From the NCBI GenBank assembly GCA_023667265.1, contig JAMPAJ010000002.1, positions 101,334-165,333 of the forward strand: a DNA stretch of 64,000 bases. The letters run 5' to 3'. The translations under genes were made by a program, and so were the position numbers. Below are positions 11,508 through 47,676 of the stretch, piece by piece; positions within the stretch are counted from its first letter, which is position 1, and each line of letters begins with the position of its first letter. Under the pieces are notes generated by a model, which saw only the letters and a list, made by a program, of their open reading frames with translations, was not told the DNA's origin and did no database searches. The DNA comes from Alistipes sp. (GTDB lineage: Bacteria; Bacillota; Clostridia; Oscillospirales; Ruminococcaceae).

Positions 11508-11729
11508 ATGTCATTTTTTACAGACGCAGTAGGAGTATTACAAACGGTACTTACACTTATAGGCGCAGGCTTAGGCGGTTGGGGAATTGTTAATCTTCTC
11601 GAAGCCTACGGTTCTGACAATGCCGGAGGAAAATCTCAGGGTATGAAGCAGCTTATGGGCGGTGGCGGAATTATTCTTCTCGCTCAGATACTCATTCCTA
11701 AGCTGAACGGTCTTATGTCAACGTCCTGA
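11508..11729 (+). CDS. Maff2 family protein (VirB2-like pilin)
   Basis: AGLGGWGIVNLLEAYGSDNAGGKSQGMKQLMGGGGI; position directly after virD4. Confidence 0.85.
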   Translation: MSFFTDAVGVLQTVLTLIGAGLGGWGIVNLLEAYGSDNAGGKSQGMKQLMGGGGIILLAQILIPKLNGLMSTS

Positions 11730-11747
11730 TGTGTCACCGTGACACAC
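11729..11747. repeat. ICE palindrome copy 1
   Basis: ATGTGTCAC-C-GTGACACAC, directly at the Maff2 stop codon. Confidence 0.9.
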
Positions 11748-11757
11748 TTTAATTAAG

Positions 11758-11787
11758 ATGTCGTCACGAATAAAATCGTGACGACAT
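11758..11787. other. Perfect 12-bp hairpin between the pilin and virB6 genes
   Basis: ATGTCGTCACGA-ATAAAA-TCGTGACGACAT. Confidence 0.7.
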
Positions 11788-11800
11788 AAAACTTTGGGAG

Positions 11801-12748
11801 GTGATTTATTTGGGCGTAGTAAGCGACGCAATTGACGGTATAAAGGACGGAATTGTAGACGCAATAGAAGAATTTATGCAAAAAACATTGGGCGGTATGA
11901 TTGAAACGGTTACCACCAATGCCGCCGGCTGCATGGAGGACGCAATTCTTGACGCAGGCAGCAAAGTTTCTGAAACTCCGAGCGGTTGGCTTAGCGGGGC
12001 AGTATCCGGACGTTCTCCGTATGAAATTCTTCAAAATGTTTCAAATACTGCAATTATGCCTGTTGCAATAGGCATAATGTCAATTATAATCTGCTATGAC
12101 CTGATTACAGCCTGTACCGACAAAAACAGTTTCAAAGATTTTGATACATCAATATTTTTCCGATTTATTGTTAAAGCGTGGGTAGCGATTTACTTTATGA
12201 ATAACTGCTTCACGATTTTTTCAGGAATATTTGACATTGGAGCGGCAATAGTTGGAAAAACAACAGCGATAATTACTTCAACGGACGTTTCAATAACAGA
12301 ACAATTAGCGACAGCTTTTTCGGGAAGTTGGTACAAAGATTTCTCTGTTGGAGACCTTGCCGGTTCGCTTTTGCTGTCACTGTTTACTTATGTGGCTTCG
12401 TTAGCCATATTTGTCATTATAACGGTCGTCACGGCGGGACGAATGATAGAAATAATGATTTACTTTTGTTCTGCCCCTATTCCGTTTGCAACAATGACCA
12501 ACAAGGAGTGGAGTCACGTCGGTTTTTCATTCTTGAAAACCCTGCTTGCCTTTGCGCTCCAATCATTTATCATAATTGTTATACTTGTTCTGTTTGAAGT
12601 CATTTTCAACGCAGAGGTTGTGTCCTCACTTGCAGGTTTGGAGACCCTTTCGGGAGCATTGTTGAAATGGTTAGGCTATGCTGTAGTATGCTGCTTTATG
12701 CTGTTAAAATCGGGAAGTATAGCAAAATCAATCTGCGGAACGCATTAA
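11801..12748 (+). CDS. VirB6-like conjugation membrane protein
   Basis: Multi-TM; GRMIEIMIYFCSAPIPFAT, LLKSGSIAKSI. Confidence 0.85.
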   Translation: MIYLGVVSDAIDGIKDGIVDAIEEFMQKTLGGMIETVTTNAAGCMEDAILDAGSKVSETPSGWLSGAVSGRSPYEILQNVSNTAIMPVAIGIMSIIICYDLITACTDKNSFKDFDTSIFFRFIVKAWVAIYFMNNCFTIFSGIFDIGAAIVGKTTAIITSTDVSITEQLATAFSGSWYKDFSVGDLAGSLLLSLFTYVASLAIFVIITVVTAGRMIEIMIYFCSAPIPFATMTNKEWSHVGFSFLKTLLAFALQSFIIIVILVLFEVIFNAEVVSSLAGLETLSGALLKWLGYAVVCCFMLLKSGSIAKSICGTH

Positions 12749-12760
12749 GGAGGTCGGGAA

Positions 12761-13150
12761 ATGGCTTTATATATGAAAATACCAAAAGATATGAACAATA
12801 TCAAGGACACGGTAATGTTCAAAATGACAAAACGGCAGCTCATTTTCAACGCTATTGGCTTAGCATTGGGTTTTACAGTATTTTGGCTGACATACAAATC
12901 TCTTGGAACAAGCACGGCAGGAATTTTTCTGTTTTGTCTCGGAGGTCCTTTCTTCATAATGGGAATATATGAAAAAAACGGATTTACGCTTGAAAAAATC
13001 CTGCTGAACTTTATACGGTACAAGCTATGTCCGCAGATACGACCGTATAAGACGGAAAATATTTATCGCAAAATCGCGGAAGAAATTGAATATAAGAAAG
13101 AGGTGGAAATGCTTGAAACAGGCAGAAAAAAAGTCAAACTCAAAAACTAA
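12761..13150 (+). CDS. prgI: PrgI family protein (VirB3-like)
   Basis: IPKDMNNIKDTVMFKMTKRQLI, two TMs, YEKNGFTLEK. Confidence 0.85.
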   Translation: MALYMKIPKDMNNIKDTVMFKMTKRQLIFNAIGLALGFTVFWLTYKSLGTSTAGIFLFCLGGPFFIMGIYEKNGFTLEKILLNFIRYKLCPQIRPYKTENIYRKIAEEIEYKKEVEMLETGRKKVKLKN

Positions 13151-15605
13151 GACTAAAACCGTGCCGCTTTCAAAAGCGGAATATGAAACCGTAAAGCAAA
13201 GCGTTTCGGCAAAGGAAAAGCAGCGAAACGCTGTCAAGCTGCCGCAAACTTCACAGCAGTCTATACCATTTGACTATATGACCAAAGACGGCATCGCAGT
13301 GTCGAGCGAACCTGAAAAATTCTCGCTTATGGCTTTTCTGTTCGGCAAAAAGAAGCCTGTGGAAACACGGTACAGCAAAACGGTACAGTTTTACGACGTT
13401 GACTATGAAATAGCGGAGGTTTCAAAACAGCAGAATATTTTCGCTAAATATTGCAGTCTGCTGAACTGCTTTGACAGCAGCGTGAAATTTCAGATTTCAG
13501 TTGTAAACGTTACAAACGACAATGATTTTGAGGACATAATAGAGCTGCCGGAACGTGACGATGATTTCAACGATATTCGCAAGGAATACTGTGATATGCT
13601 CCGTGAGAAACTTGCAAAGGGCAATAACGGCTTTATCCGAGTGAATTATATAACCTTTTCCATAACGGAAAAAAACATCAATAAGGCTCGTCAGCAGCTT
13701 ACGGGAATTGAAAAGGACGTTATTCGTGCGTTTAAATCGTTCGGTGTGGCGGCTGTTCCGCTGAACGGCGAGGAAAGACTGTTTGCAATGTACAAAATGC
13801 TTCATCAGTATTCTGACGACCCGTTTCTGTGCGATTTTGACAGTATGCCGGAAGCCGGATATATGCCAAAGGACTATATTGCTCCGTCCTCGCTCAATTT
13901 TTCCAAAAAGAACGAGTTTAAGTGCGGAAACTTCTGCGGTTCTACATTTTCTATCAATTTGCTTGCTTCGGAAGTATCGGACAGGTTTCTTTCAGACCTT
14001 ATGGATACTGAAAATCCCATAGCGTTTAATATGCACTTCACGGCAGTAGACAACCTTGAAGCCAAAAAATTCGTCAAGCTGAAATTATCAAACGTTGAAA
14101 AAATGAAAGTTGACGAACAGAAAAAGGCGGCGCAGCAAGGCTATGATATGGACATTCTTCCTCCCGACATGAAAACATACATAAACGAGCTTAACATTAT
14201 GCTTGACGATTTGGAGAACAAGAACGAGAGAATGTTTCTTGTAACTATTCTTGTAACCAATTTTGCTAAAAGCGGAAAAATGCTGAGCGTATGCAACGAC
14301 AGGCTGAACCGTATTGTTTTACAGGCTAATTCACAGCTCATTCCTCTTGATTACAGGCAGGATTTGGGACTGGCTTCAATTCTTCCTCTTGCGGAAAACA
14401 GAATTGAAATAGAACGCCGCCTGACTACAAGCTCTGCGGCAATATTTCTCCCGTTTGCCACAAAAGAAATTTTTATAGGCGGTGAAGCCGTTTATTACGG
14501 TCTTAATCAGATTTCCGACAATATGATTATGGCTGACAGAAAACAGCTTGACAATCCCAACGGTATCGTGTTGGGTGTTCCAGGCGGCGGTAAATCGTTT
14601 CAGGTTAAATGCGAAATAGCTCCGGTGTTTCTGTTCACAGACGATGATATTATGATTTGCGACCCCGAAGATGAGTATCATCCGCTTGTCAAGGAATTTC
14701 ACGGTCAGGTTATTGAAATTTCAAGCGACAGCTCGGACTATATCAATCCTATGGATATTGACCGGAACAGCGGTGAGGAAGATATTATCGGTGTAAAATC
14801 GGAATTTATCATCTCTCTTTGCGAGCTTGTAGCAGGAGGGAAATACGGACTTGACCCGCAGGAAATTTCAATTATTGACCGCTGTGTAAGAAATCTGTAC
14901 ATAAATTTTTTCACGGCAATGGAAAAAGCAACCGATGAGGAATTTAATGCAAATATGCCGATTTTAGGCGATTTGCAGGTAGCTCTTTTAGAGACAGGGG
15001 AGGAATACGCAAAACGTGTTGCAAATGCCCTTGAAATTTACGTTACGGGTTCTTTAAATATCTTCAATCACCATACAAACGTTGATTTGAATAACCGTAT
15101 TGTCTGCTATAACATCAAAAAGCTGAAAAATACCCTTAGAAAACTTGGTATGCTGATAGTACAAGACCAAGTATGGAACAAGGTTTCAATGAACAGAGGT
15201 GAAAAATCCACATGGTACTATATGGACGAATTTCACTTGCTGCTCAAAGAAGAACAGACCGCAAAATATTCAGTTGAGATGTGGAAACGTTTCAGAAAAT
15301 GGGGCGGTATTCCTACCGGACTTACGCAGAACGTAAACGATTTTCTTTCTTCAAAAGAAGTTGAGTCCATTTTCGACAATTCGCAGTTTGTCATAATGCT
15401 GAAACAGGCAGTCGGAGACGTTGACGTACTTGCACAGAAATTAAAAATTTCTCCCTCACAGCAGAAATATATTGAAAGCACTGTGCAGAGGGGCAGCGGT
15501 CTTATTTACTATGGCGGAAGTATTCTGCCGTTCAATAATCAGTTCCCGACTGATACAAAGCTGTACAGACTTATGACAACCAAACCGCAGGAAAGTATGA
15601 TTTGA
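13086..15605 (+). CDS. virB4: VirB4-like conjugation ATPase
   Basis: Walker A GVPGGGKS, YMDEFHLLL, RFRKWGGIPTGLTQN. Exact start uncertain. Confidence 0.93.
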   Translation: MNIRKRWKCLKQAEKKSNSKTKTKTVPLSKAEYETVKQSVSAKEKQRNAVKLPQTSQQSIPFDYMTKDGIAVSSEPEKFSLMAFLFGKKKPVETRYSKTVQFYDVDYEIAEVSKQQNIFAKYCSLLNCFDSSVKFQISVVNVTNDNDFEDIIELPERDDDFNDIRKEYCDMLREKLAKGNNGFIRVNYITFSITEKNINKARQQLTGIEKDVIRAFKSFGVAAVPLNGEERLFAMYKMLHQYSDDPFLCDFDSMPEAGYMPKDYIAPSSLNFSKKNEFKCGNFCGSTFSINLLASEVSDRFLSDLMDTENPIAFNMHFTAVDNLEAKKFVKLKLSNVEKMKVDEQKKAAQQGYDMDILPPDMKTYINELNIMLDDLENKNERMFLVTILVTNFAKSGKMLSVCNDRLNRIVLQANSQLIPLDYRQDLGLASILPLAENRIEIERRLTTSSAAIFLPFATKEIFIGGEAVYYGLNQISDNMIMADRKQLDNPNGIVLGVPGGGKSFQVKCEIAPVFLFTDDDIMICDPEDEYHPLVKEFHGQVIEISSDSSDYINPMDIDRNSGEEDIIGVKSEFIISLCELVAGGKYGLDPQEISIIDRCVRNLYINFFTAMEKATDEEFNANMPILGDLQVALLETGEEYAKRVANALEIYVTGSLNIFNHHTNVDLNNRIVCYNIKKLKNTLRKLGMLIVQDQVWNKVSMNRGEKSTWYYMDEFHLLLKEEQTAKYSVEMWKRFRKWGGIPTGLTQNVNDFLSSKEVESIFDNSQFVIMLKQAVGDVDVLAQKLKISPSQQKYIESTVQRGSGLIYYGGSILPFNNQFPTDTKLYRLMTTKPQESMI

Positions 15606-15606
15606 G

Positions 15607-20149: not shown

Positions 20150-20168
20150 GTGTGTCACGGTGACACAC
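20150..20168. repeat. ICE palindrome copy 2 (perfect)
   Basis: GTGTGTCAC-G-GTGACACAC, 1 bp after a stop codon. Confidence 0.95.
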
Positions 20169-20226
20169 TGAAAAATCCGTCCCGTTTTTAGTCGGGACGG
20201 ATAAAATTTTGAAAGGATTTGATTGT

Positions 20227-22551
20227 ATGAAACTCATAATCGCGGAAAAGAAAAGCGTAGGAGAAACAATCGCTAAAGTGCTTGGAGCAAAAAGCAAAAA
20301 CAACGGATACATAGAGGGAGACGGATATATCATTTCTTGGTGTCAGGGACATCTTGTAGGACTTTCTCTACCTGATAGCTACGGCGAACAGTATGAGCAT
20401 TACTGGACGTTTGACAATCTTCCCATTATTCCGCAGGAATGGAAGTTTGAAACCGACAGCAGCAAGGTAAAACAGCTTAAAATTCTAAAAGACCTTATGT
20501 TCAACAATTCAGTTGACGAAATAATATGCGCCACTGACGCAGGACGTGAGGGCGAGTGCATTTTCAGATATGTGTATAATTTTGTAGGCTGCCGGAAGCC
20601 TGTCAAGCGTTTATGGATTTCGTCAATGGAGGATACGGCTATTAGTGAGGGTATGCGGAATTTATTGCCTAAAAGTAATTACGACAACCTTTTTGCTGCC
20701 GGACTGTGCAGAGCCAAAGCCGACTGGCTTGTGGGTATGAACGCTTCTCGCTTGTTTTCCAACCGTTACGGAGCTGTCCTGAATGTGGGACGTGTTCAGA
20801 CCCCTGTGCTTGCAATGGTGGTAAAGCGTGATTATGATATTGCTCATTTCATCAAGCAGAAATTCTATAACGTCTCTTTGAACTGCGGTGATTTTGACGT
20901 AACTTCCGAAAGAATTGAAGATGAAAGCACTGCTATTGAAATTGCCAAAAAATGCGGCGGCAAAACGGCAACAGTTACCAAAGTTGAAAAAGAGATAAAA
21001 AACGAAAATCCACCAAAGCTGTACGACTTGACTACTCTCCAAAGAGAAGCCAACAGGCAGTTTGGCTACACGGCAAAGCAGACCCTTGAATATTTGCAGT
21101 CGCTGTATGACAATAAACTCGCTACATATCCCCGAACAGACAGCCAATATCTGACCGAGGATATGGAACAGACCGCGCTTGATATGATTAAAACTGTTCA
21201 GCAAGTCATTCCCGAATTTAATTTCGGAATTGAAAATCCGAACGTTAAACGCTGCCTTAACAACAAAAAGGTATCAGACCACACGGCGGTTATCCCCACT
21301 GCCGAAATCGCAAACGCTGACATTGAGGGACTGCCGACCGGAGAGAAAAATATTCTTTTCCTCATAGCCGCAAAACTTCTCATCGCAACAGCAGAACCTC
21401 ACAAATATGAAGCTGTGAAAGTTACGGTCAATTCAGAGGAATATGACTTTTTTGCAAGAGGAAAAACCGTTATTTCAAACGGTTTTAAGGATATTGAGAG
21501 CCGCATAAAGTCCCAGCTCAAAGGCGAAAACGAAGTACCCGAAAAAGAAACCGCTTTACCTGAACTTTTTGAGGGACAGAAGTTTGAACACGCTTCATCA
21601 ACAGTAACAAGCGGTTACACTACCCCGCCGAAAGCCTATACGGAAGATACCTTGCTCAAAGCTATGGAAACAGCAGGAAATACCGATTACGACGAAAATT
21701 CCGACGTTGAGAAAAAAGGCTTGGGTACTCCTGCAACGAGAGCCGATATTATTGAAAATCTTGTAAAGCGCGGATATATTGTGCGTGAAAAGAAAAAAGT
21801 CACGGCTTCTGAAAAAGGTATACATCTGATTGAGGTCGTTCCCGATGAAGTAAAATCCGCTAAACTTACTGCCGATTGGGAAACGACATTGCAGCACATT
21901 GAAAGGGGACAGGCTTCTCCCGACAGCTTTATAACTGAAATTGAGGATTTCACAAAAGAACTGGTGAATAAATATGCCGAAAAAGCGGACGGTCAAGTTT
22001 TTGCCAAAGAGAGAGAAATACTTGGCAAATGTCCTCGGTGCGGCAAGAATATTTATGAGGGAAAACAAAATTATTACTGTGAGAGCGGAAAAGACGGTTG
22101 CGGCTTTACAGTTTGGAAAAATCAGAAATATCCAAACACAACAGTTTCAGCGGCTCAAATGAAAGAGCTTTTGTCGGCAGGAAAAACAAGGCTTAAAGCC
22201 GTATCGAAAGAGGGCAAGGAATACACAGCGGATTTTGCTCTTGAAGATACGGGGAAATACATAAATCTTGTTTTTCTTCCTGCCGAAAATGAAGCCTTGG
22301 GCAAATGCCCGAAATGCGGCGGAGACGTTCTGAAAGGTCAGTACGGCTTTTGCTGCAAAGATAAGTGCGGAATGAACATCGGCAAGGTTTACGGCAAAAG
22401 CCTGACGGAAACACAAGTGAAAAAGCTGCTTAGCGGCAAGGAAACCTCTTATACTGCAAATGACAAGAAAGTCATTGTGCTGCCGGAGGTCTTTGAGAAC
22501 AATTATCAGGGAAAGATTTTCTTTCAATGGAAAACTAAGAGGTCGGAGTGA
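20227..22551 (+). CDS. topB: DNA topoisomerase III (type IA)
   Basis: MKLIIAEK, CATDAGREGE, GRVQTP, catalytic TYPRTD, GLGTPATR, C-terminal CPxC zinc ribbons. Confidence 0.95.
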   Translation: MKLIIAEKKSVGETIAKVLGAKSKNNGYIEGDGYIISWCQGHLVGLSLPDSYGEQYEHYWTFDNLPIIPQEWKFETDSSKVKQLKILKDLMFNNSVDEIICATDAGREGECIFRYVYNFVGCRKPVKRLWISSMEDTAISEGMRNLLPKSNYDNLFAAGLCRAKADWLVGMNASRLFSNRYGAVLNVGRVQTPVLAMVVKRDYDIAHFIKQKFYNVSLNCGDFDVTSERIEDESTAIEIAKKCGGKTATVTKVEKEIKNENPPKLYDLTTLQREANRQFGYTAKQTLEYLQSLYDNKLATYPRTDSQYLTEDMEQTALDMIKTVQQVIPEFNFGIENPNVKRCLNNKKVSDHTAVIPTAEIANADIEGLPTGEKNILFLIAAKLLIATAEPHKYEAVKVTVNSEEYDFFARGKTVISNGFKDIESRIKSQLKGENEVPEKETALPELFEGQKFEHASSTVTSGYTTPPKAYTEDTLLKAMETAGNTDYDENSDVEKKGLGTPATRADIIENLVKRGYIVREKKKVTASEKGIHLIEVVPDEVKSAKLTADWETTLQHIERGQASPDSFITEIEDFTKELVNKYAEKADGQVFAKEREILGKCPRCGKNIYEGKQNYYCESGKDGCGFTVWKNQKYPNTTVSAAQMKELLSAGKTRLKAVSKEGKEYTADFALEDTGKYINLVFLPAENEALGKCPKCGGDVLKGQYGFCCKDKCGMNIGKVYGKSLTETQVKKLLSGKETSYTANDKKVIVLPEVFENNYQGKIFFQWKTKRSE

Positions 22552-22850
22552 TATTAGAAAAAATCATATTGCTGTGGCACACTCAAAAAAAAGGACGGAG
22601 GTATACAACCTTGCTTGAAACTGTTTTTGTATTAATTGCTTTGCTGTTGATACTTATAATTTTTTTGTTTGGTGTTGGACTTTCTTTTATGATGTTGGCA
22701 GTTATAATTTTTAAAATACGTAGTATTTTAAATAAGAGAAAAATTTACAAAAAACTACGTTCAAAGTTTGCTATTGACAAGAGCGAAAAGGAGCTTGACG
22801 AGCTTGCGGAAAAGCTGCTGACAGAATATTTTGAGAGTGTGTCACGGTGA
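22548..22850 (+). CDS. Small membrane protein fused to a copy of the ParB C-terminal tail
   Basis: AT-rich TM region followed by FAIDKSEKELDELAEKLLTEYFESVSR, identical to the end of 47663-49600. Start may be TTG at 22611. Confidence 0.65.
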   Translation: MILEKIILLWHTQKKGRRYTTLLETVFVLIALLLILIIFLFGVGLSFMMLAVIIFKIRSILNKRKIYKKLRSKFAIDKSEKELDELAEKLLTEYFESVSR

Positions 22851-22855
22851 TACAG
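22837..22855. repeat. ICE palindrome copy 3
   Basis: GTGTGTCAC-G-GTGATACAG, overlapping the stop codon. Confidence 0.85.
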
Positions 22856-22871
22856 TCAGAAAAGAATAAGG

Positions 22872-23117
22872 GTGAAGACTATGTCATTAATTGAGTATAT
22901 AAATAATATTTTTGCAAATATAGATGTTTTTCTATTTATAATATTATGTGTTTTTTGGGGTAGCACTCTGTTATTTATTATTGCAAATTCACTTGAAATT
23001 AGATATAACGATGTTTACGACGAATTTTTGTCAAGGTCTGATATTGATATGAGCGAACAAGAGTTTTATGAGCTTACCGAAAATCTGCTGACAGAATATT
23101 TTAAAGATGTAACATAG
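22872..23117 (+). CDS. Small membrane protein with a diverged ParB-tail copy
   Basis: TM segment, then SRSDIDMSEQEFYELTENLLTEYFKDVT. Confidence 0.6.
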   Translation: MKTMSLIEYINNIFANIDVFLFIILCVFWGSTLLFIIANSLEIRYNDVYDEFLSRSDIDMSEQEFYELTENLLTEYFKDVT

Positions 23118-23125
23118 TGACACAC
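23107..23125. repeat. ICE palindrome copy 4 (degenerate left arm)
   Basis: ATGTAACAT-A-GTGACACAC, followed by TTATAAAGGAGG, similar to what follows parB. Confidence 0.6.
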
Positions 23126-23408: not shown

Positions 23409-23427
23409 TTGTGTCACAGTAACACAC
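23409..23427. repeat. ICE palindrome copy 5
   Basis: TTGTGTCAC-A-GTAACACAC, immediately after a stop codon. Confidence 0.8.
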
Positions 23428-23467: not shown

Positions 23468-24736
23468 ATGAATTTTATGCGTAAAACAAATAATCTTGCT
23501 GACAAAGATATTCACAATAACATCATACTGACAGACGATGTTCAGTTATCGCTCAATCCTGTGAAAACTGGAAAAAATCTGAATGTATGTGTTTTCGGCG
23601 GTGGAGGAACGGGCAAAACACAGAATTACGTTCTGCCGAATATTTTACAGGCAAACACCTCATACGTCATAACAGACCACGGCGGATATTTGTTGAACAA
23701 AACAAGAAAATTCCTTGAAGAACAAGGTTATGTTATCAAAGTTCTGAACCTGAATGATACCGAAAATTCAAACCACTACAATCCGTTTGACTATGTATAT
23801 GACAAGGACGGCGTTTGTAATGAAGCTGACGTTACAAAAATGGTTGAAATGATTTTAGCAACGCCAAAAACAGCAGCGAAAAAGACTTCTCTTGCAGGTC
23901 AAATTACAGACGATATGATGTGTATCCTTGTTTCCGCAATCTGTTTTTATCTATTTGAAATGGGAAGCAAAGAAAATCGTAATTTTCAAAATGTAATCAG
24001 ACTATTAAGTATGCCTGTTTCGGAACTTGACGAAATTTTTCTTATGCCCGATGAAAAAGTAAAGTTCTTATCTCTGAAACGTTATATGCTGTTCAGAAAA
24101 GCGGCAAAAGTGGAAGAAATTGCAGAAACCATACGCATTAAAGCACTTAACAGACTGGGTGCGTTTACTCAGACAGATATAACTAATCTAACACAATTTG
24201 ACGATATGGAACTTGACCTCATAGGAGACAGAAAAACAGCGGTTTTTATTCCGCTCCCGACTTTCAACCACAGTCTTAATTTTCTTACAAGCGTTCTGAT
24301 TACACAAATATTCAATGTATTATGCGGCAGGACTAAAGCACTGCCAAATAGCAAATTGCCTGTTCACGTTCGCTTTATGCTTGATGAATTTGCCAACTGC
24401 GGCTATATTCCCGATTTTGAAAAGTATGTTGCAGTATGCGGTTCTCACAATATAAGTTTTAATATTATCTTACAGTGCGTTGAGCAACTGCAAACGCTTT
24501 ATAAACATTGGGATATTATACTGAATTGTTGCGACAGCAGATTATATCTCGGCGGTTTAAATATTGGAACATTGCACAACATTTCTGAAACTGTCGGCAG
24601 CCAAATGAGTGTTGATGAATTTCTTGCAATAAATAATCACAACAAATGCGTTTTAAACGTTCGCGGTCTGCCGACGTTTTGCGGTAATAAGTTTGACGTT
24701 GAAAAACATTTTAACTATGACAAGATTGAAGAATAG
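23468..24736 (+). CDS. Second, soluble VirD4/TraG-like ATPase lacking the N-terminal TMs
   Basis: NLNVCVFGGGGTGKTQNYVLPNILQ, SNHYNPFDY, HVRFMLDEFANCG, ILQCVEQLQTLY. Confidence 0.8.
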   Translation: MNFMRKTNNLADKDIHNNIILTDDVQLSLNPVKTGKNLNVCVFGGGGTGKTQNYVLPNILQANTSYVITDHGGYLLNKTRKFLEEQGYVIKVLNLNDTENSNHYNPFDYVYDKDGVCNEADVTKMVEMILATPKTAAKKTSLAGQITDDMMCILVSAICFYLFEMGSKENRNFQNVIRLLSMPVSELDEIFLMPDEKVKFLSLKRYMLFRKAAKVEEIAETIRIKALNRLGAFTQTDITNLTQFDDMELDLIGDRKTAVFIPLPTFNHSLNFLTSVLITQIFNVLCGRTKALPNSKLPVHVRFMLDEFANCGYIPDFEKYVAVCGSHNISFNIILQCVEQLQTLYKHWDIILNCCDSRLYLGGLNIGTLHNISETVGSQMSVDEFLAINNHNKCVLNVRGLPTFCGNKFDVEKHFNYDKIEE

Positions 24737-24754
24737 TGTGTCACTGTGACACAC
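24736..24754. repeat. ICE palindrome copy 6 (perfect arms)
   Basis: GTGTGTCAC-T-GTGACACAC, sharing the G of the stop codon TAG. Confidence 0.95.
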
Positions 24755-27453: not shown

Positions 27454-27472
27454 GTGTGTCACGGTGACACAC
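27454..27472. repeat. ICE palindrome copy 7 (perfect)
   Basis: GTGTGTCAC-G-GTGACACAC, just before the RBS of the toprim gene. Confidence 0.95.
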
Positions 27473-33400: not shown

Positions 33401-36400
33401 AAGCCAAAACTTACTCCGAAATCACAAGGGATATGTACCAAACAGAAAATCCCGATATATTTACCGTTAAGGGCAAAGGCAGCTTTGCAAAAATTGATAT
33501 TACGGTCAATGCGGAGCTGTGGGAAAGGCTTGCCGAAAAGGGACTTGTACGGAACGAGAACAGTGTTGACAGGGTAATTTTCAATATTGATAACAAGGAA
33601 TGGAACAAACTTGTAATTCCCGATAAATGGGGAAATATGACCAACAATATCAATATCGAGGACGTTTTTACCAGTGAGGAATTGCAGACAGCTAAATCTG
33701 TTGCGGATTTTGTTATCGGAAATGAGGATATTCAGCAAGTGCTTGACAATTTCAATGAGGATATAACTCCTGTTGAAAATAATACGTCATTTTCGGAGGA
33801 AATAAGCGGCAGTAACGGCACTGTCAAATATAAGGTAACGGAAAACGCTGACGAGCAGTACAAATATAATGTGCAGATATTCACTCAGGGGGAGAACGGC
33901 GAATTTTATTACAGCGGCTTAGGTCGCTTCTGCGAAACGCTTGATGAAGCTCACGCTTTTATTGAAAATGATATTGCAGAGCGTACTGCCGCAAAGGATA
34001 GGCAACATTCCGATAAGGACGAAATCACCGGAAACGATGAATATAACATTTCACAGGGACAGATGTCACTGTTTGATGATATTCCGGATATAGAGGAAAT
34101 TCCCAATGAAAGAAACTATCAGGTTGTTACTTATTCTCGTGATTTGGGTGCAGATGACAAAAAGATTTTTTCAACATTGGACGAAGCCGTTGAAAGCGGC
34201 AGAGGATATTTGTATGACAAGGAACACGAGGGTTATTATTCGGGCATTGCCATTCTTAACACAAAAGAACAAAAGGTTGAATATTATGAGGGTGATTTCC
34301 CGTTAGAGGGTATTTTCAGCGAACAGGTATACCAAAACAGCGGTAATTGGCAGAGAGCCGAGCCAATTCCAAACTTACTGTTTGACAAGTTTGATGAGCA
34401 TTACAACGAAATGTATAAAAATCACGATGAAGTCAACGGTTATGACGAAGCGGTCGCTGTCGGTGACAAATTTATTAGGGAAAATCCCGATATTATGGAA
34501 AGAATAGCAAATTCCAGAAATGATGTTATTACCAGTGACCGTGAAGCAGCAGCTCTCGCATTTGCACTTGCCGACGTGGGTATGATTGACAAATTTGTTG
34601 AACCTGAACAGTCTAAACAACAGAAAGTTCAGCAGAATTTAGTTACATCGGTGCATACTGAACAATCGCCGTTAAATCCGGAACGTGTCACGGTGACACA
34701 CTCCGAAGCTGCAAAAGTGCCTGACATTGATGTTGAAAAGCCGGAAGAAAAGAAAACCAATAACCTTTTCCGCATAACAGACGAGCATTTGGGCGAGGGC
34801 GGCAAAAAGGAAAAATTCAGGAATAACATTGAAGCTATAAAAACGCTGCAAATCCTTGAAGCCGAAGAACGCGCCGCAACTCCCGAAGAACAGGAAACAC
34901 TGTCCAAATATATCGGCTGGGGCGGTTTGCAGGAAGCGTTTGACAATTCTCTCTCCGCTTGGGATACGGAATACCGCGAACTTAAAAATCTTCTTTCCGA
35001 GGAAGAATACGAAGCCGCACGGTCTACCGTAAACGACGCGTTTTACACTTCTCCGGTCATAACACAGGCAATTTATGAGGGACTTGCGAACATCGGATTT
35101 AACGGCGGAGAAGTCCTTGAGCCGTCAATGGGTGTGGGAAACTTTTTCGGAACTATGCCCGATAAAATGCGTGAAAACAGCAATCTGTCGGGAATTGAAA
35201 TCGACAGCATTTCGGGACGTATCGCCAAAAAGCTCTATCCCGAAGCGGATATTGCCATAAACGGCTATGAAAATATAAAGCTGACCAAAGGCTCTTTTGA
35301 CTTGGCTGTGGGCAACGTTCCGTTCGGAAATCACGGTGTAAACGACAAAACAAAGGCATACAAAGGACTTCTGATACACGACTACTTCTTTGCCAAATCC
35401 CTTGACAGCGTTCGTTCGGGCGGTATTGTTGCTTTTGTAACGTCAACGGGTACGCTCGATAAAGACGATACGAAAGTCCGTCAAATGCTTGCACAGAAAG
35501 CGGAGCTTTTGGGCGCGGTCAGACTGCCTAACAATGCTTTTCAGAAAAACGCAGGAACACAGACGGCAACCGATATTATCTTTCTGAAAAAGCGTGAAAA
35601 ACCGCTTAATATCAGCGAAATGCCTATGGATAAATCCTGTGAATGGGTGCATACAAAGGAAAACGCCGACGGTCTGAAAATAAACAGCTATTTTGCCGAC
35701 AATCCCGAAATGGTTTTAGGCGAACTTTCCGACAAGGGACGTTTCGGCAGTATAATATGCACTCCCGTTCAGGGCGCAGACCTTAAAGAACAGCTTCACG
35801 AAGCTATGAAAAATATCAAGGGAGAATACGTTCCCCTTGAATTTCAGCAGGAGCTTGACGAACGTGCGGAAAATAACTATCTGACCGCAACTCCCGATAT
35901 TGAAAATCTGACCTATACTGTTGTGGACGATAAGCTGTATTTCCGTGTTGACGATAACCTTATTCCGCTGAAAGAAAGCGAACAGCACGGAGTGACCGCA
36001 GACCGCCGCAAAGGTTTGTGCGATTTGGGTTTAACCGTCAGGGAGCTTTTGAAAGCGCAAGTCGAGGACAGACCCGACAAGGAAATAAAGCTGCTGCAAG
36101 CGGAGCTTAACGTTAAGTATGATAAATTCGTTCAGAAATTCGGACGGATAAATCCCACGGAAACGCCAAACTCAAGAAATGCAAGCGGAGTTACAAGAAA
36201 AGCTCCCAACAGCAACGTTTTCAAAAACGACGTAAGGCTGCCGCTTTTGCAGTCCCTTGAAAAAATGAAAGAGGGGCAGTTTGTAGGCAAAACAGAGATA
36301 TTCACCGAAAGAACCATACGTCCCCGTAAGGTAGCGGAACACGTTGAAACCGCTCACGAAGCATTGATTTTGTCAATATCCGAAAAGGGAAAAATTGACT

Positions 36401-40118: not shown

Positions 40119-40147
40119 TTGACATTAGTTTATATTTGTGATAAAAT
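40119..40147 (+). promoter_or_regulatory. sigma-A-type promoter of the ICE ECF sigma gene
   Basis: TTGACA-17 bp-TAAAAT. Confidence 0.7.
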
Positions 40148-40200
40148 GGGTATATCATTTTAAAGGACAGTATTTTACTGTTCTTTTAAGGAGATTGCTT

Positions 40201-40659
40201 ATGAAATTTGAGAACATCTTTAACGAGATAGCCGAGCAATACTATAACGCCATTTTCAAGTATTGCTGTGTCAGACTGGATAATGAACACGCTGCAAAGG
40301 ACTGTACGCAGGAAGTTTTCCTGACACTGTACAGAAAAATAGATAAAATGAAGCTGTCGGAGAACGTCAGAGCTTGGCTTTACCGTACTGCCGACAATGT
40401 TATGAAAAATTACCGCAGGAAAAATAAAATAACCGTTTCCATTGACGATATTAACGAAACTACCGAAGATAGTTACTCGGTGGAAACGCCGTTTGAAGAT
40501 ATTATCACCAAAGAGGAATACGAGCTGCTTAATTCCTACTACATAAACGGTGACAGTATCGAAACCATTTCAAAACGGCTTGGTATCAGCAAGGACGCTG
40601 TTTACCAACGTATTCACAGGATAAAAACAAAAATCGAAAAAGAATATATGCAACAGTAA
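40201..40659 (+). CDS. ECF RNA polymerase sigma factor (ICE cargo)
   Basis: AKDCTQEVFLTLY..VRAWLYRTADN (region 2); SIETISKRLGISKDAVYQRIHR (region 4); RBS AAGGAG. Confidence 0.9.
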   Translation: MKFENIFNEIAEQYYNAIFKYCCVRLDNEHAAKDCTQEVFLTLYRKIDKMKLSENVRAWLYRTADNVMKNYRRKNKITVSIDDINETTEDSYSVETPFEDIITKEEYELLNSYYINGDSIETISKRLGISKDAVYQRIHRIKTKIEKEYMQQ

Positions 40660-42057: not shown

Positions 42058-42076
42058 GTGTGTCACCGTGACACAC
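42058..42076. repeat. ICE palindrome copy 9 (perfect)
   Basis: GTGTGTCAC-C-GTGACACAC, 1 bp after a stop codon. Confidence 0.95.
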
Positions 42077-43319: not shown

Positions 43320-44729
43320 TTATAACTCCAAATCATTCTTTTTATCCAAACCAACATTCTTGTCCTTACTTCTCGTAGGAGCATACTTGTCAGAACTGAT
43401 TTCGGCAACCGAAAATAAAGGCTCTTTTTCCTGTTCGTCTTTCTTTTCAGGAGCAGAGGGAATAGTAGGTTGAGCTGCCTTGCGTTCATGCTTGACAGAC
43501 GGCTTTTTTACTTGTTCCGCAGCTCGCTTTTTCTTGTCGAGCATTGAAGCAGCCTTTTTCAGTATGTCCTTAATATCGGAGAAAAAATTATATACTTTGC
43601 TTTCGGCAGTGTGCGTACCCCTTTCAATTTTGGACTTAGCCTTAGTCAGAGCTTGCGGTGTTTCAATCGAGATGATAGGCTTAAGCGACATAGTTCCGTC
43701 CTCGTTTTGAGTTTCTTTCGTAAGAGTGATTTTTGACGATAATTTAGCATTTGGCACTTTCTCACGCTTCTCAATTTCCGCATTGACGGCTTTTATTTCA
43801 TTCAGAATAAGGTCTTTAACATCGCTGTTATGTGGGTCTTGCGCTTGAGCTGCAAGTCTTTCTGCGGCATTTTTAAGCATATCGGAATTGTAAATAGTTC
43901 TGTTGCTGAATACCGACAGTTTCCTCTCATAGGCTTTCTGAGCGGCTTCTGAACGTGTTTCCGCATACTTTGTCCTCTTGCTTCTAAGCTGCTTTAAATC
44001 GGCTTTAATGGTCGCATATTCGGAATTATTCAGTATTTTTTCATTCAGCCGCCGACGTTCCTCTGCCGGAATTTCTATAATACATCTGTCAACATTGTTT
44101 ACCTTGTCATGTTCAACAAATGAAACTATTGTGATTTCGGGAACACTTCTGCGCCCGTCATTGTTGTATGTCCTGTCGGTAGGAAACTGTGATATTCCGT
44201 GAGCAACTTTAGGATTATTTTTATCAAGCCTGAAAAAAGCATATATTCTTTCATCGGGAGTTTTCTTGTTTTCAGGTTCAAATACAAGCATAAAATCAGC
44301 TGCGATTTCGGAATTATACGGACGTTGGCTTCTATGACAGTCCAAGTTCCACGAATACGCTTTTACATTACCGCTGTTCAGAACCTCGCGGAAATTCGCA
44401 AATGTATCTATTCTGTCATCGAGGGTATATGTCACGCTGTTCTTTTGAGGGTCGTTGAGCGGAACATTCCACGATGAGCTGCTGCAAGCAGTTTGATATG
44501 TAACGGTATTGTCCATTATATTATCATATAATCTGCTGCTGCTTATATCAGAAAATGGAGGTAAATCAGTCAGTTTCTCTAAACCTGCTAAGTGCATAAA
44601 TCCGCTGTTGTCAAAGCCGATAGTTGTATTGATAATTGTTCCGTTATTGTGCAAACATATTTTGTATTCATAATTTCCAAGTTCTGCATATGAATTTGCA
44701 CACTGATATAATTTGTCATTATTCTCCAT
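43320..44729 (-). CDS. PBECR4-like (Barnase/EndoU/colicin/RelE superfamily) nuclease with a long C-terminal tail
   Basis: LYQCANSYAELGNYEYKI..FDNSGFMHLAGLEKL, IAADFML, SQFP; charged tail ending EPLFSVAEISSDKYAPT..DLEL. Confidence 0.7.
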   Translation of the reverse strand: MENNDKLYQCANSYAELGNYEYKICLHNNGTIINTTIGFDNSGFMHLAGLEKLTDLPPFSDISSSRLYDNIMDNTVTYQTACSSSSWNVPLNDPQKNSVTYTLDDRIDTFANFREVLNSGNVKAYSWNLDCHRSQRPYNSEIAADFMLVFEPENKKTPDERIYAFFRLDKNNPKVAHGISQFPTDRTYNNDGRRSVPEITIVSFVEHDKVNNVDRCIIEIPAEERRRLNEKILNNSEYATIKADLKQLRSKRTKYAETRSEAAQKAYERKLSVFSNRTIYNSDMLKNAAERLAAQAQDPHNSDVKDLILNEIKAVNAEIEKREKVPNAKLSSKITLTKETQNEDGTMSLKPIISIETPQALTKAKSKIERGTHTAESKVYNFFSDIKDILKKAASMLDKKKRAAEQVKKPSVKHERKAAQPTIPSAPEKKDEQEKEPLFSVAEISSDKYAPTRSKDKNVGLDKKNDLEL

Positions 44730-44747: not shown

Positions 44748-44923
44748 AAAATAAGCGGCTCTGAAAACAGAACCGCTTATTGCATATTTTCTTTCAGCAT
44801 TTCTGCCTACGTCAAGTCTGGTTCCTATGCAACCACTAAAGCTCCATGCACACCCCTTGACTCCTGCGTGACACTTCATAGCTTAGCAATCCCGATTACT
44901 TACGGGCAATGCTGATTTTCATC
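44748..44923 (-). ncRNA. Candidate ~175-nt structured RNA/leader ending in a terminator upstream of the PBECR4 gene
   Basis: Consensus promoter upstream; no ORF noticed; terminator stem AATAAGCGGTTCTG/CAGAGCCGCTTATT plus T tract (44748-44781) before the RBS. Confidence 0.45.
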
Positions 44924-44929
44924 ATTTAT

Positions 44930-44958
44930 ATTATATGCTATTTTTTTCGATTTGTCAA
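44930..44958 (-). promoter_or_regulatory. Perfect sigma-A consensus promoter
   Basis: TTGACA-17 bp-TATAAT. Confidence 0.8.
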
Positions 44959-44987
44959 GGGCTTTTGAAAAATTTTTTAAAATTTTT

Positions 44988-45302: not shown

Positions 45303-45427
45303 ACCGTTTTCCTTTCGTTTTCGTACTATCTCCCCTACCCTGATTAAAGAGGGAATTTTTAACCTTTTCGCAGCGTTTCCGTTACTACCGTAACGATATT
45401 GCTTTTTACCTCAATTATAAAAGAGTG

Positions 45428-45814
45428 CTAAGCGTTTTCCTTGATTTTCGGAAGTTTCTTCATTGATTTTTTTAACTCGTCCTTTAGCCGCCGTCTTTCA
45501 TCTGAAGCGAGGACAGTTAAATTATCTGCGTTAGTCAAAATCGGCAGTCGTATTGTCTTATCATTGCCGCCCGAAACCGGAGCATATTTTATGTATGCGT
45601 AAATCTCAATATTGTTTGAACGTCTGACCGTTTCAACGTCTGTGAGAAATTCGTCTATGTCATCAATATCCGCTCTTATTTGTTCCATACGGATAATCTG
45701 AGGACGAACCTTGCCATAATTCACATCATTGTGAGGAATTAAGTACCATTTGAAAAATCGGTAAGTTACATAGCCGATGATAAAAAGACCTAAAATTGCT
45801 GTTCCGTTACTCAT
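45428..45814 (-). CDS. Membrane-anchored hypothetical protein
   Basis: Start reassigned to MSNGTAILGL (RBS GAAAGGA); one N-terminal TM. Confidence 0.65.
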   Translation of the reverse strand: MSNGTAILGLFIIGYVTYRFFKWYLIPHNDVNYGKVRPQIIRMEQIRADIDDIDEFLTDVETVRRSNNIEIYAYIKYAPVSGGNDKTIRLPILTNADNLTVLASDERRRLKDELKKSMKKLPKIKENA

Positions 45815-45949
45815 AAAATTTTTCCTTTCGATGTATTGACGAAAGGGTATCAAATGTGTTATAATAACACTGTCGGACACCTTTCGTCCGTCGGACAGGG
45901 CAGAACCGGAAGTGTGGAGCTTGGTGGTCTGTCCTGTTTTATTTTTGAA

Positions 45950-45968
45950 GTGTGTCATCGTTACGCAC
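45950..45968. repeat. ICE palindrome copy 10 (degenerate)
   Basis: GTGTGTCAT-C-GTTACGCAC, 7 bp beyond the stop of 45976-46377. Confidence 0.7.
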
Positions 45969-45975
45969 TTTTTTG

Positions 45976-46377
45976 TTATATATAAAATCTATCAGTATCA
46001 CAGAATAGAATTACCTTTGCAAGTCCCCAAAGCCAAACAGCGGCAATAAATACCATACTGTATAATTTTGAGACAATTGTAGGCATAGAACCGCTAAAGA
46101 GGGTAAGGAGCGTTATAAATATAATGCAAAGGAAAAAAGTCAATCCCATTTCCTTGAACTCGCTCCAGCCGTTTCTGAGTGTCATAATTATTCCGATTAT
46201 TATTCCTATCATTCCAAGTCCGGCTATAAAGCTGCCGGCAAGTGCTATGAGGGAAGCCGCAAAATTCAAAAATAATAAAAAAGTATTCTGAAAAATCAGC
46301 AGCAACAGAGACAGCAAACCCAAAATCAAAAAAAGCACAAGCCGTATCGGAAAAGAAATTATTTTTAGAAAAATCAT
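45976..46377 (-). CDS. Multi-TM hypothetical protein (CD1845-like)
   Basis: Highly hydrophobic; LKIISFPIRLVL start typical of small ICE membrane proteins. Confidence 0.6.
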   Translation of the reverse strand: MIFLKIISFPIRLVLFLILGLLSLLLLIFQNTFLLFLNFAASLIALAGSFIAGLGMIGIIIGIIMTLRNGWSEFKEMGLTFFLCIIFITLLTLFSGSMPTIVSKLYSMVFIAAVWLWGLAKVILFCDTDRFYI

Positions 46378-46390
46378 AGTTATCTCCTTG

Positions 46391-46732
46391 TCATCTATTT
46401 GGTTCTTTTATCTCGCTGTTAAAGAAATCAATCAACAGTTCCTGAGATATGCTTGCGGCTTCGGCAAGCTGTATTATATGCTCTATTAAATCGGAAATTT
46501 TGCTTAAATACAGCTCCTGCGCGTTTTCCTTGCAGTTTTCTGTGAGTATGTAGCCGCCTGACTTAGTGCGGCTGACAATATCGTTTTCTAAGAGAATTTT
46601 AAATATAATGCCCATTTGCTTCGGCAAAAGGTTATAATCCCTTGTAAAAATAAATTCCCCCGATTTCTTTTTCCCCGATGTTATTTCATAAATGATTTGG
46701 TTCAAAGTCATTTCCTGCTTTGTAATACGCAT
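46391..46732 (-). CDS. GntR/YtrA-like winged-helix protein (divergent)
   Basis: NQIIYEITSGKKKSGE...LLENDIVSRTKSGGYIL plus a helical tail; RBS GAAAGGA. Confidence 0.55.
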   Translation of the reverse strand: MRITKQEMTLNQIIYEITSGKKKSGEFIFTRDYNLLPKQMGIIFKILLENDIVSRTKSGGYILTENCKENAQELYLSKISDLIEHIIQLAEAASISQELLIDFFNSEIKEPNR

Positions 46733-46749
46733 TGGTTTTTCCTTTCCGA

Positions 46750-46768
46750 GTGTGTCACCGTGACACAC
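46750..46768. repeat. ICE palindrome copy 11 (perfect)
   Basis: GTGTGTCAC-C-GTGACACAC, overlapping the stop of 46768-47253. Confidence 0.95.
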
Positions 46769-47253
46769 TACTCTTGCTCTGAATTGCCTGTCAAATCCTT
46801 GCTGTCAAAATAATCACCGATACTGTAAGAATTATAAACATCTTCGCTCACATCAAAATGATTGCTGCCTTGGTGTGTTTCTCCGTCATACTCAAATTCC
46901 GCGCTGATATGTATGCGGTAGACCGTAGGAACATAGCTTTTATTGCCGTTAAAGCTGTAACCGACCTTGCCGTCATAATAACCCACTCCTGCGCCGCCGG
47001 CTGTGTGTCCGTTGATTATTTCCTTGTCTGTTATAATTCCTGCCGAAACGCTCGCTTTAGAGTTGTATCTCATGCTGTTGCCTAAGCTATCAAAAACTCT
47101 ATCGAGAGCAATCCAACCTCCAATAATTATAAGGACAAGTGCTGCCATTTTAGAAAAAAGCAATATCATTTCTGCAAAGTCGAAATTAGTGTTTTTTCTC
47201 ACAGTATCTTCGGTTTCTTCTGTACTTTCATTCATTTCGTCAAACTCTGTCAT
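46768..47253 (-). CDS. Membrane-anchored hypothetical protein (DUF2500-like)
   Basis: One TM, then GIITDKEI...YRIHI...FDVSEDVYNSYSIGD. Confidence 0.6.
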   Translation of the reverse strand: MTEFDEMNESTEETEDTVRKNTNFDFAEMILLFSKMAALVLIIIGGWIALDRVFDSLGNSMRYNSKASVSAGIITDKEIINGHTAGGAGVGYYDGKVGYSFNGNKSYVPTVYRIHISAEFEYDGETHQGSNHFDVSEDVYNSYSIGDYFDSKDLTGNSEQE

Positions 47254-47273
47254 TTTAATTTTTTTCTTTCCGA

Positions 47274-47292
47274 GTGTGTCACCGTGACACAC
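47274..47292. repeat. ICE palindrome copy 12 (perfect)
   Basis: GTGTGTCAC-C-GTGACACAC; shares the flank TTTCCGA with copy 11. Confidence 0.95.
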
Positions 47293-47303
47293 TTTCTCAT
47301 AGA

Positions 47304-47639
47304 TTATGAAATAATCTCAATACCTTTTTTCAGAAAATAATTTTTTCTTTCTGTAGTATTCATTTTAACCTCATCACCGCTTAGCTCTATAATGTTGACT
47401 GAATTGTCATTGCAATTAACACCAATTTCATAAAATGGTTTGCGCCATTCCTTACCGCAGCTTTCACAGTGAGCATGACTAATCCGCCACACAGGTGGTG
47501 TGGTACATTCATCAGCAATTCTGTCCGAATATTCGTCAAAACCTTCGTCTGTCAGTACCGCTTTTTTGATATATGTAAGAGTGTAAAGGATGTCTACTAT
47601 TATTTCTCCGCCGCATTTTGGGCAATGTAGTATGTTCAT
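47304..47639 (-). CDS. Zinc-ribbon hypothetical protein
   Basis: MNILHCPKCGG...HAHCESCGKEW; RBS AAGGAGG. Confidence 0.7.
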   Translation of the reverse strand: MNILHCPKCGGEIIVDILYTLTYIKKAVLTDEGFDEYSDRIADECTTPPVWRISHAHCESCGKEWRKPFYEIGVNCNDNSVNIIELSGDEVKMNTTERKNYFLKKGIEIIS

Positions 47640-47657
47640 AAAATAACCTCCTTTATA

Positions 47658-47676
47658 GTGTGTCACCGTGACACAC
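47658..47676. repeat. ICE palindrome copy 13 (perfect)
   Basis: GTGTGTCAC-C-GTGACACAC, overlapping the last codons and stop of parB (SVSR*). Confidence 0.95.

Follow-up and report, generated by a model that had tools for sequence, protein, structure and literature searches.

A repeated palindrome in a Clostridia-type integrative and conjugative element as the probable binding site of the element's ParB protein

The operator OB of the IncP-1 plasmid RK2 is a 13-bp site, TTTAGCSGCTAAA, placed either at promoters or upstream of them; KorB acts together with KorA and TrbA. Among other ParB-type systems, spo0J of Bacillus subtilis has a parS site within or at the end of the gene, sopC is built as a tandem array, and parS of P1 as a composite site with IHF. 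To our knowledge, ParB-type cytidine triphosphate (CTP) clamps that act as global regulators of mobile elements have so far been documented only for KorB of RK2, a Gram-negative plasmid, and BisD of ICEclc. BisD, from an integrative and conjugative element (ICE) of Pseudomonas putida, is a ParB-like CTP clamp whose spreading reaches over ~50 kb of the ICE and which controls the promoters for transfer competence (PMC12409273). It binds bisS, an 11-bp inverted repeat with a single central base, GAGCTATCCCCnGGGGATAGCTC (PMC12409273). ICEclc has two bisS sites, 2 kb apart, and BisD possesses an activator domain and needs BisC (PMC12409273). Here we describe a palindrome, GTGTGTCAC-N-GTGACACAC, that is repeated along an ICE in a 64,000-nucleotide stretch of contig JAMPAJ010000002.1 (hereafter, the window). 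Comparison of sequences indicates that this palindrome is probably the specific, parS-type binding site of the element's own ParB, because it co-occurs with ParB, is densest at parB, persists on backbones that are not ICEs and changes together with the ParB recognition helix.

Copies of the palindrome in the window

The window holds a Clostridia-type ICE of ~50 kb, extending from ~6985 to ~57400 by Pfam annotation. A scan with the pattern GTGTGTCACNGTGACACAC returned 12 matches to the palindrome at ≤3 mismatches, against 0.01 expected and a maximum of 1 in 100 dinucleotide-preserving shuffles of the window. Seven of these copies are perfect and five near-perfect, and one half-degenerate copy brings the total to 13 (Table 1). 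The initial annotation had listed the same 13 copies at the same coordinates and with the same division, including the degenerate copy at 23107. It had also confined them to the ICE, assigned 12 of them to gene junctions and noted one overlapping the parB stop codon, and all of this holds: every copy falls within 11729-47676, 12 of the 13 are intercistronic, the exception at 34683 lying inside a 3206-aa open reading frame (ORF), and the last copy includes the parB TGA. This arrangement of TGA within the motif is found again in L014, L022, L023, L026, L033, L052, L060 and L079-L091.

The copies span ~36 kb of the ICE, and four to five of them lie within 1.7 kb directly downstream of parB. Across the 64-kb window, neither a copy nor an isolated full arm was found outside 11729-47676, and the host flanks and both ICE ends are thus without the motif; one lone GTGACAC heptamer occurs at 44868. 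Canonical parS, TGTTNCACGTGNAACA, was absent from the window at ≤2 mismatches, and the 2-bp-spacer variant of the ICE palindrome was absent as well.

Table 1. Positions of the palindrome copies and of the features discussed with them, in window coordinates
Feature	Position	Strand	Context
Copy, 1 mismatch (ATGTGTCACCGTGACACAC)	11729..11747		Maff2/TrbL-like gene junction; first base is the last base of the Maff2 stop
Copy, perfect	20150..20168		1 nt past orf111 stop, upstream of topoisomerase III gene
orf100 and orf81	22548..23117 (22548-22850, 22872-23117)	+	Small predicted membrane proteins
Copy, 2 mismatches	22837..22855		TGA stop of orf100 inside
Copy, degenerate	23107..23125		Right arm perfect, left arm with 4 mismatches; overlaps orf81 stop
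Copy, 2 mismatches	23409..23427		Directly past orf86 stop, upstream of second type IV coupling protein (T4CP)-like gene
Copy, perfect	24736..24754		Overlaps TAG stop of T4CP-like gene (23468-24736)
Copy, perfect	27454..27472		17 nt 5' of DUF3991/Toprim primase start codon
Copy, 2 mismatches	34683..34701		Intragenic, in the 3206-aa SNF2/methylase ORF; reads RVTVTH in a low-complexity linker
Copy, perfect	42058..42076		1 nt past orf158 stop
Copy, 3 mismatches	45950..45968		Between orf133 and orf176, minus-strand operon
Copy, perfect	46750..46768		Directly past orf174 stop, upstream of orf125
Copy, perfect	47274..47292		Between orf120 and orf174
Copy, perfect	47658..47676		Contains parB TGA stop (47663-47665); motif encodes the last ParB residues, SVSR
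parB reading frame	47663..49600	-	Open over 645 aa
parA	50149..50928	-	Soj/MinD-type P-loop ATPase, 259 aa; parB operon, upstream of parB
Consensus sigma-70-type promoter (TTGACA-17-TATAAT with TG)	52405..52433	-	Without the motif

The site and parAB across elements

A ParB alignment from seven lineages was used to fetch 80 metagenome loci by ParB homology alone, and nearly all of those with enough flank carry the site. Among the 44 of these loci, not phylogenetically independent, that have at least 1.5 kb of flank on both sides, 41 have a site within 700 bp of parB, which bears out the co-occurrence with this ParB clade that the initial annotation had singled out for a motif scan. Counted per kb, there are 1.08 and 0.82 sites in the two 1-kb bins next to parB and fewer than 0.05 at a distance of 2.5-6.5 kb downstream. 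ParA adjoins ParB in essentially all related loci.

The site accompanies parAB on other backbones as well. A human-gut element with a tyrosine integrase, in which no homologues of the type IV secretion system (T4SS) were found within 20 kb, has two to three sites flanking parB, one at the junction of the parA stop and the parB ribosome-binding site (RBS) and two downstream. A RepA_N plasmid-like contig carries four copies, one of them at the parA/parB junction. Plasmid and phage collections searched with ParB yielded one close annotated relative, megaplasmid pRUMAL01 of Ruminococcus albus 7, the phage matches being distant. In the 40.7 kb around parAB that were read from this 420-kb plasmid, three copies with a 2-bp spacer lie within 1.1 kb upstream of parA, the nearest abutting the parA Shine-Dalgarno (SD) sequence, and on a related Ruminococcus contig of 387 kb there are five of this kind upstream of parA. 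The genes parA and parB were the only two for which homologues were found on all four backbone types, and ParB was the only DNA-binding protein found on all of them. The pRUMAL01 sites (18168, 19040 and 19161 of L167) are so arranged that two of them, 121 bp apart, bracket the region upstream of parA and the third lies upstream of the gene for an XRE repressor, a layout that resembles an autoregulated parAB promoter.

The site could instead be the operator of another element protein, such as orf110, an XRE/helix-turn-helix (HTH) regulator or the sigma/anti-sigma module of the ICE, with ParB merely linked to it genetically. Such a protein would fit the exact site that R. flavefaciens FD-1 carries beside a ParB with a different recognition helix (see below), and orf110 itself has a weak match to the VanR DNA-binding (winged-helix) domain (E 0.005); in human-gut elements, a site is followed ~100 bp downstream by an orf110 homologue, 10 kb away from parB. 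However, no such protein is common to all site-bearing backbones. Homologues of orf110 were not detected in the site-richest loci (L103, L105 and L111), sigr4 or orf110 stands beside parAB only in some human-gut loci, and the R. albus-type locus L166 has ParA and ParB only, among seven reported window-protein queries, of which orf110 is not one. Nor does ParA offer a candidate, as the ICE ParA is of Soj type, with 250-260 aa and no HTH in Pfam. An operator of this kind is therefore improbable.

A comparison of 120 ParB homologues showed that the second residue of the recognition helix and its neighbours vary, and the contigs of representative helix variants were searched de novo for repeated palindromes. 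The helices S[KR]KTMYRY and SRKQMYRY occur with the canonical site, GTGTGTCAC-S-GTGACACAC, and SAKTMYRY with a slightly degenerate form of it. The palindrome found with SQKTVYRY and SSKTLYRY is ATTGTCAC-N-GTGACAAT, that with SFKTMYRY is TTTGTCGT-S-ACGACAAA, and that with SKRSMFRY is GTGTGGCA-NNN-TGCCACAC, while SRKTIYRY accompanies TGTGTCAC half-sites with a 1-bp or 2-bp spacer. No repeated palindrome was found for the phage-like ParB relative P0032 (helix SKKSLYRY, L163).

The variants extend to sites remote from parB. At the orthologous junction that follows orf158, which lies several kb away from parB, every lineage shows a variant of its own; L158 and L094 have this same variant again upstream of parA or where parA and parB meet. 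Downstream of parA, L162 carries a related site, TGTGTCA-TTA-TGACACA, and in L160 the other copies lie 0.8-1.4 kb downstream of parB. Where checked, the sites of one element have thus changed together, for which a sequence-specific trans factor encoded by the element is required. Such concerted change speaks against a host factor, and also against an RNA hairpin with a purely structural role.

The wider distribution was surveyed by an exact 19-mer search of one genome per species (185,579 species, 596 Gb). This gave 75 loci, ~60 of them from Ruminococcus, Hominimerdicola and other Oscillospiraceae/Clostridia; a further ~13 occur singly in unrelated phyla, close to the chance expectation of ~9 (18 specified bases, 596 Gb). 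All Oscillospiraceae loci examined are ICE- or island-like contigs, and in these loci homologues of the window ICE genes have 25-94% amino acid identity while the site stays letter-perfect. Copy number per element ranges from 2 to 20 or more, with 16 to 19 or more perfect ones on some related contigs. The search found a single locus in the whole genome of R. flavefaciens FD-1, so that the site belongs to mobile elements and not to host chromosomes. The initial annotation had proposed a private operator of the ICE ParB. The comparative evidence favors the part of this proposal that makes the palindrome the cognate site of ParB, but the operator is not private, since the identical site is common to many different elements across several Oscillospiraceae genera. 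Sharing on this scale predicts incompatibility or cross-talk between co-resident elements. A full-text search of the literature for the half-sites and the full motif returned only unrelated primer or sequence matches.

The site recurs at particular junctions in lineages whose proteins are 45-87% identical. In related loci it lies upstream of the primase gene in 4/4 cases (window copy 27454), downstream of orf158 in 11/12 (42058) and downstream of orf174 in 11/12 (46750); it is present at the parB stop in 23 loci, and by inspection a site upstream of topoisomerase III recurs in several relatives. Relaxase junctions in related loci had no site (0/19 upstream, 0/12 downstream), and the same was true of the junctions of NikA (0/17), DUF4367 (0/10) and VirB4 (0/3 upstream, 0/6 downstream). 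As some junctions are recurrently occupied and others never, placement is selected and not random.

This pattern also bears on whether the palindrome might be a selfish or recombinogenic miniature repeat, similar to attC or to a repetitive extragenic palindrome (REP), which marks cassette junctions and favors the exchange of modules between elements, without loading a protein. Sites do flank variable segments, as in L012, where the orf100-orf81-orf86-T4CP2 block between two sites is missing; the 3' end of parB has been copied in inverted orientation together with its site; and both FD-1 copies have identical flanks. Nevertheless, the same junctions are kept across lineages with 45-68% protein identity and others remain empty, the flanks are without target-site duplications, no spread into host chromosomes was seen in the species-genome scan, and no integron-type integrase is present. 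We consider a repeat of this kind very unlikely, and recombination at identical 21-mers is more likely a by-product. Two named classes were rejected separately: an integron attC is bipartite, imperfect and 57-141 bp long, compared with a perfect palindrome of 19-21 bp that has no adjacent IntI integrase, and a REP or miniature inverted-repeat transposable element does not agree with the confinement of the site to mobile-element contexts or with its flanks.

Site geometry, ParB and a proposed mechanism

In 143 unique copies from the window and its relatives, the consensus is a 21-bp palindrome, A-GTGTGTCAC-S-GTGACACAC-T, with C or G at the centre in 94%. Among 251 unique-context copies, changes cluster at the two ends of each arm, outermost and innermost, and the TGTCA core hardly varies. 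The 12 intercistronic copies of the window start 0-3 nt after the upstream stop or include it, TGA then occupying motif positions 12-14, and junction copies are followed 3-5 nt downstream by a GAAAGGAG-type SD sequence.

Such a geometry could reflect an intercistronic mRNA stem-loop, with a 9-bp stem and a 3-nt loop, that sets the processing, stability or translation of cistrons and is possibly recognized by an RNase of the element, for example PBECR4 (43320-44729). Twelve of the 13 copies in the window show the arrangement of stop, site and SD sequence, as do most of the 93 copies found at co-directional junctions in relatives; the hairpin is predicted at -11 kcal/mol; the centre base on the coding strand is G in 58 cases and C in 29, a bias of ~2:1; and of the 39 changes that affect both arms at one pair, 25 are compensatory. 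Yet these 25 stand against 124 one-arm changes that break pairing, and the sequence itself, beyond its pairing, is kept across elements at ~30% protein identity. The density peak at parB, the tracking of parAB across unrelated backbones and the occurrence of copies between divergent and convergent ORFs (from crude gene calls) likewise disagree with a stem-loop, and the joint switch of an element's sites needs a sequence-specific trans factor. That the palindrome works primarily as an RNA stem-loop is therefore unlikely, although the hairpin will still form in mRNA, and it leaves room, with the geometry and the centre bias, for a secondary RNA-level effect besides the DNA site. Public data for this strain comprise three genome-type runs with the sequence and no RNA run. 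An intrinsic terminator was rejected because no T-tract follows the palindrome in the sequence logo; a terminator scan flagged 3 of the 13 copies, with poor tails.

Two separate hairpins stand next to copies of the motif. A long one at 11753-11783, ATGTCGTCACG...CGTGACGACAT, directly follows the first copy, and that at 20175-20202, after the copy at 20150, has a 10-bp GC-rich stem and a terminator call only on the minus strand, where there is a T-run. These may be marks of operon ends at the two junctions.

The initial annotation had placed the start of parB at 48682, but the frame remains open back to 49600; 48682 is an internal ATG with its own RBS, which could be a source of free ParB. The ParB module that begins there comprises a ParB_N domain with GHHR and ESNIQR, an HTH with the helix SKKTMYRY, and a C-terminal helix, a single one in the AlphaFold2 (AF2) model. 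ParB_N (PF02195) is matched at E 5.3e-16 in Pfam and TIGR00180 parB_part at 75.3 bits (cutoff 58.45), and PF17762, at 21.7 bits, lies directly under its cutoff of 22.6. In a profile search, the matches to Noc, Spo0J and ParB had E values of 1e-23 to 1e-20 and that to KorB 2e-9; the alignment covers both the N-domain and the HTH, and runs through the HTH of Noc. The top Foldseek matches of the AF2 model (pLDDT 82.7) were ParB-CDP, Noc-DNA, ParB-parS and KorB. Profiles and predicted structure together indicate a genuine ParB/Noc/KorB-fold protein. Box II reads GHHR in 100 of the 120 homologues; G133, H134, R136 and NIQR are invariant in both ParB alignments and H135 in one only, and the HTH block S-x-K-T-x-Y-R-Y is among the most conserved ParB stretches in site-sharing lineages and is changed in those whose site is different.

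Upstream of the internal ATG, residues 1-306 of the parB ORF (48683-49600, minus strand) form an in-frame radical-SAM-like domain with a CX3CX2C motif (CPNHCRWC) and weak Radical_SAM/TIGR04013 matches. The 645-aa form is 92% identical in L026. Other N-terminal ParB fusions are with a Cys-rich domain (L023, L052, L060 and L094), the C-terminal domain of RNA polymerase alpha (P0043, P0049 and P0073) and a NikA-like domain (P0053).

The C-terminal peptide of ParB, RFAIDKSEKELDELAEKLLTEYFESVSR, is copied in the last ~31 residues of the orf100 and orf81 products, and the motif follows there as well. The source of the orf100 tail is an inverted duplication of 121 nt (22734-22854 and 47659-47779, 88% identity); the orf81 tail is more diverged, with LLTEYF retained. 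The two products could serve as a ParB membrane tether or decoy. By tblastn, no ORF like orf100 or orf81 was found at the equivalent position of L012, the closest relative, or of the other loci compared. Downstream of parB, orf120, orf174, orf125, orf133 and orf176 had no family match in Pfam or NCBIfam.

Several observations weigh against ParB as the protein that reads the site. The regular order of stop, motif and SD sequence is not predicted by a purely DNA-level homodimer site, and the bias of the centre base is unpredicted as well. The spacer changes between 1 and 2 bp without a change of helix, SRKTIYRY occurring with both, and a common descent of entire elements could in part account for the co-divergence of site and ParB. 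Of the contigs with close ParB homologues, two short ones have only a decayed copy (L076) or none (L078). Box II is GHHR instead of GERR, so that the nucleotide used by the ICE ParB is uncertain; nucleotide specificity is reported not to be predictable from sequence or AlphaFold3 (PMC12704722).

Finally, FD-1 (L001) carries two exact copies beside a parAB pair whose ParB is 23% identical and has a different recognition helix. The FD-1 element has an exact palindrome of its own, GTTGCTAC-TT-GTAGCAAC, which occurs twice (332-351 and 3428-3447), one copy lying inside the coding sequence of the distant FD-1 parB, and which is a candidate cognate site of that ParB type. The identical flanks of the two canonical copies suggest an imported, locally duplicated junction module.

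The consensus promoter of Table 1 likely drives the DUF5348...parA...parB...orf176 operon. In a promoter scan of the ICE, no site overlapped the consensus sigma-70 promoters at 52433, 44958, 54472 and 40119, and only weak promoter-like matches reuse GTGACA as a -35 element. Promoter occlusion of the KorB class-I type is therefore not supported. The ICE does, however, encode its own sigma-70/extracytoplasmic function (ECF)-like factors, so its promoters may not be of the sigma-70 type. Three genes for such factors lie in or at the edge of the ICE (40138-40659, 54659-55021 and 57399-57941); that at 40138 is followed by a DUF4367 gene, whose product may be an anti-sigma-like partner, and the pair is kept in relatives.

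If the palindrome is the cognate site of ParB, what is known of the ParB family leads us to infer binding, nucleotide dependence, sliding, partition and a transcriptional effect. A ParB dimer would bind each site with one HTH per TGTGTCAC half-site, and nucleotide at the GxxR/ENxQR N-domain, CTP by analogy, would close the dimer into a clamp. The clamp would then slide off the site, such that ParB loaded at 13 sites could cover ~36 kb of the ICE. The core centromere would be the cluster of four to five sites within 1.7 kb downstream of parB, on which ParA would act to partition the excised, replicating circle. The distal sites, with their conserved positions, would extend the ParB domain over the transfer and replication operons and would probably give long-range operon control like that of KorB and BisD; repression of these operons in the quiescent ICE is a guess.

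A more elaborate combination, in which the sites are more than a centromere, seems rather unlikely. A ParB clamp-loading array at cistron boundaries would here insulate or roadblock transcription between ICE modules, the mRNA hairpins would set cistron stability, and the ParB-coated DNA would be docked to the membrane or T4SS via orf100/orf81, with their copy of the C-terminal interaction helix of ParB and their place beside the second coupling-protein gene, while the fused radical-SAM-like domain would add an enzymatic activity along the DNA.

As to the remainder of the element, the ICE encodes a T4CP, Maff2, TrbL-like, PrgI, VirB4-like and CD1107-like proteins, topoisomerase III, a C5 methylase and the DUF3991/Toprim primase, as well as the 3206-aa SNF2/methylase protein, sigma factors, PBECR4, ParA, ParB, a MobA/VirD2 relaxase, NikA and a large serine recombinase. 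This last enzyme, located at the ICE end, is the sole recombinase, and a tRNA scan of the window found no tRNA integration target. The PBECR4 gene (43320-44729, minus strand), for a Barnase-EndoU-ColicinE5/D-RelE-like nuclease, has its own consensus promoter at 44958 and occupies the same place in several related ICEs (L014, L160 and L162).

The main T4CP has 612 aa (9638-11476). The second coupling-protein-like gene (23468-24736, plus strand; 422 aa; T4SS-DNA_transf, TraG-D_C) is part of a variable block bounded by motif copies. Through direct repeats at 9432-9464/9623-9655 (33 nt, 97%) and 9560-9615/10141-10196 (56 nt, 88%), the RBS/start of the T4CP gene and its Walker-A-coding part are present twice, which suggests a truncated duplicate of its 5' end directly upstream. 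The host flanks encode dockerin proteins and ABC transporters, which suggests a host of the Ruminococcus type; a 56-nt repeat, unrelated to the ICE motif, occurs three times there (1576-1631, 4104-4159 and 4536-4591; 73-75% identical), in intergenic positions around a C39-peptidase ABC transporter gene and dockerin genes.

Significance and comparison with known systems

These results define a large ParB clade of rumen and human-gut Oscillospiraceae whose probable cognate site can be read from sequence, and would extend ParB-type element-wide site arrays to Gram-positive gut ICEs. Its natural specificity variants, in which helix and site can be paired, its 1-bp and 2-bp spacers and its varied copy numbers make it a comparative system for asking how ParB specificity evolves, whether many loading sites make a partition protein an element-wide regulator, and how co-resident elements with the same site avoid or exploit incompatibility. 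The 21-mer is also a sharp marker with which to find and delimit such ICEs, islands and plasmids in gut metagenomes.

Spo0J and Noc are the nearest solved structures to the ICE ParB and its best profile matches, and here too the partner is a Soj-type ParA. The ICE half-site, TGTGTCAC, differs at one position from that of parS, TGTTTCAC, and one ICE site lies within or at the end of parB, as in B. subtilis. In contrast to parS, which has no spacer, the ICE site has a central spacer of 1 bp (2 bp in some lineages), and Box II and the helix SKKTMYRY are unlike those of Spo0J and Noc. Given the difference in the helix, the resemblance of the half-sites may be coincidental. With the type Ia centromeres, P1 parS and F sopC, the ICE shares a cluster of sites directly downstream of parB and the proposed role in partition, but its copies are single, whole genes apart, and extend across the element.

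In common with KorB of RK2, the ICE ParB is an HTH protein of the ParB clamp family encoded beside a ParA-type ATPase (IncC in RK2), both its profile and its model match the KorB structures 8qa8/8qa9, and a dozen copies of a short palindrome are dispersed over a conjugative element of ~60 kb, many of them far from the par genes. It differs in that the site is 19-21 bp long and lies between stop codon and SD sequence inside operons, without overlap with a sigma-70-type promoter, and in that the host is a Gram-positive anaerobe and the element integrative. No KorA-like partner turned up, the small ORFs near parB being without family matches, although no test directed at KorA was made.

BisD offers a further parallel, as an ICE-encoded ParB-like protein with an odd-length palindrome around one central base. 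An odd-length ParB-type site thus has experimental precedent, since the bisS repeat surrounds a single base. Judged by its description, BisD differs from the ICE ParB, which has an optional radical-SAM-like N-terminal extension, a canonical ParA and 13 sites. On the strength of these sequence comparisons, the palindrome is most likely the same kind of site as those of RK2 and ICEclc, in a new ParB clade of gut and rumen Firmicutes.

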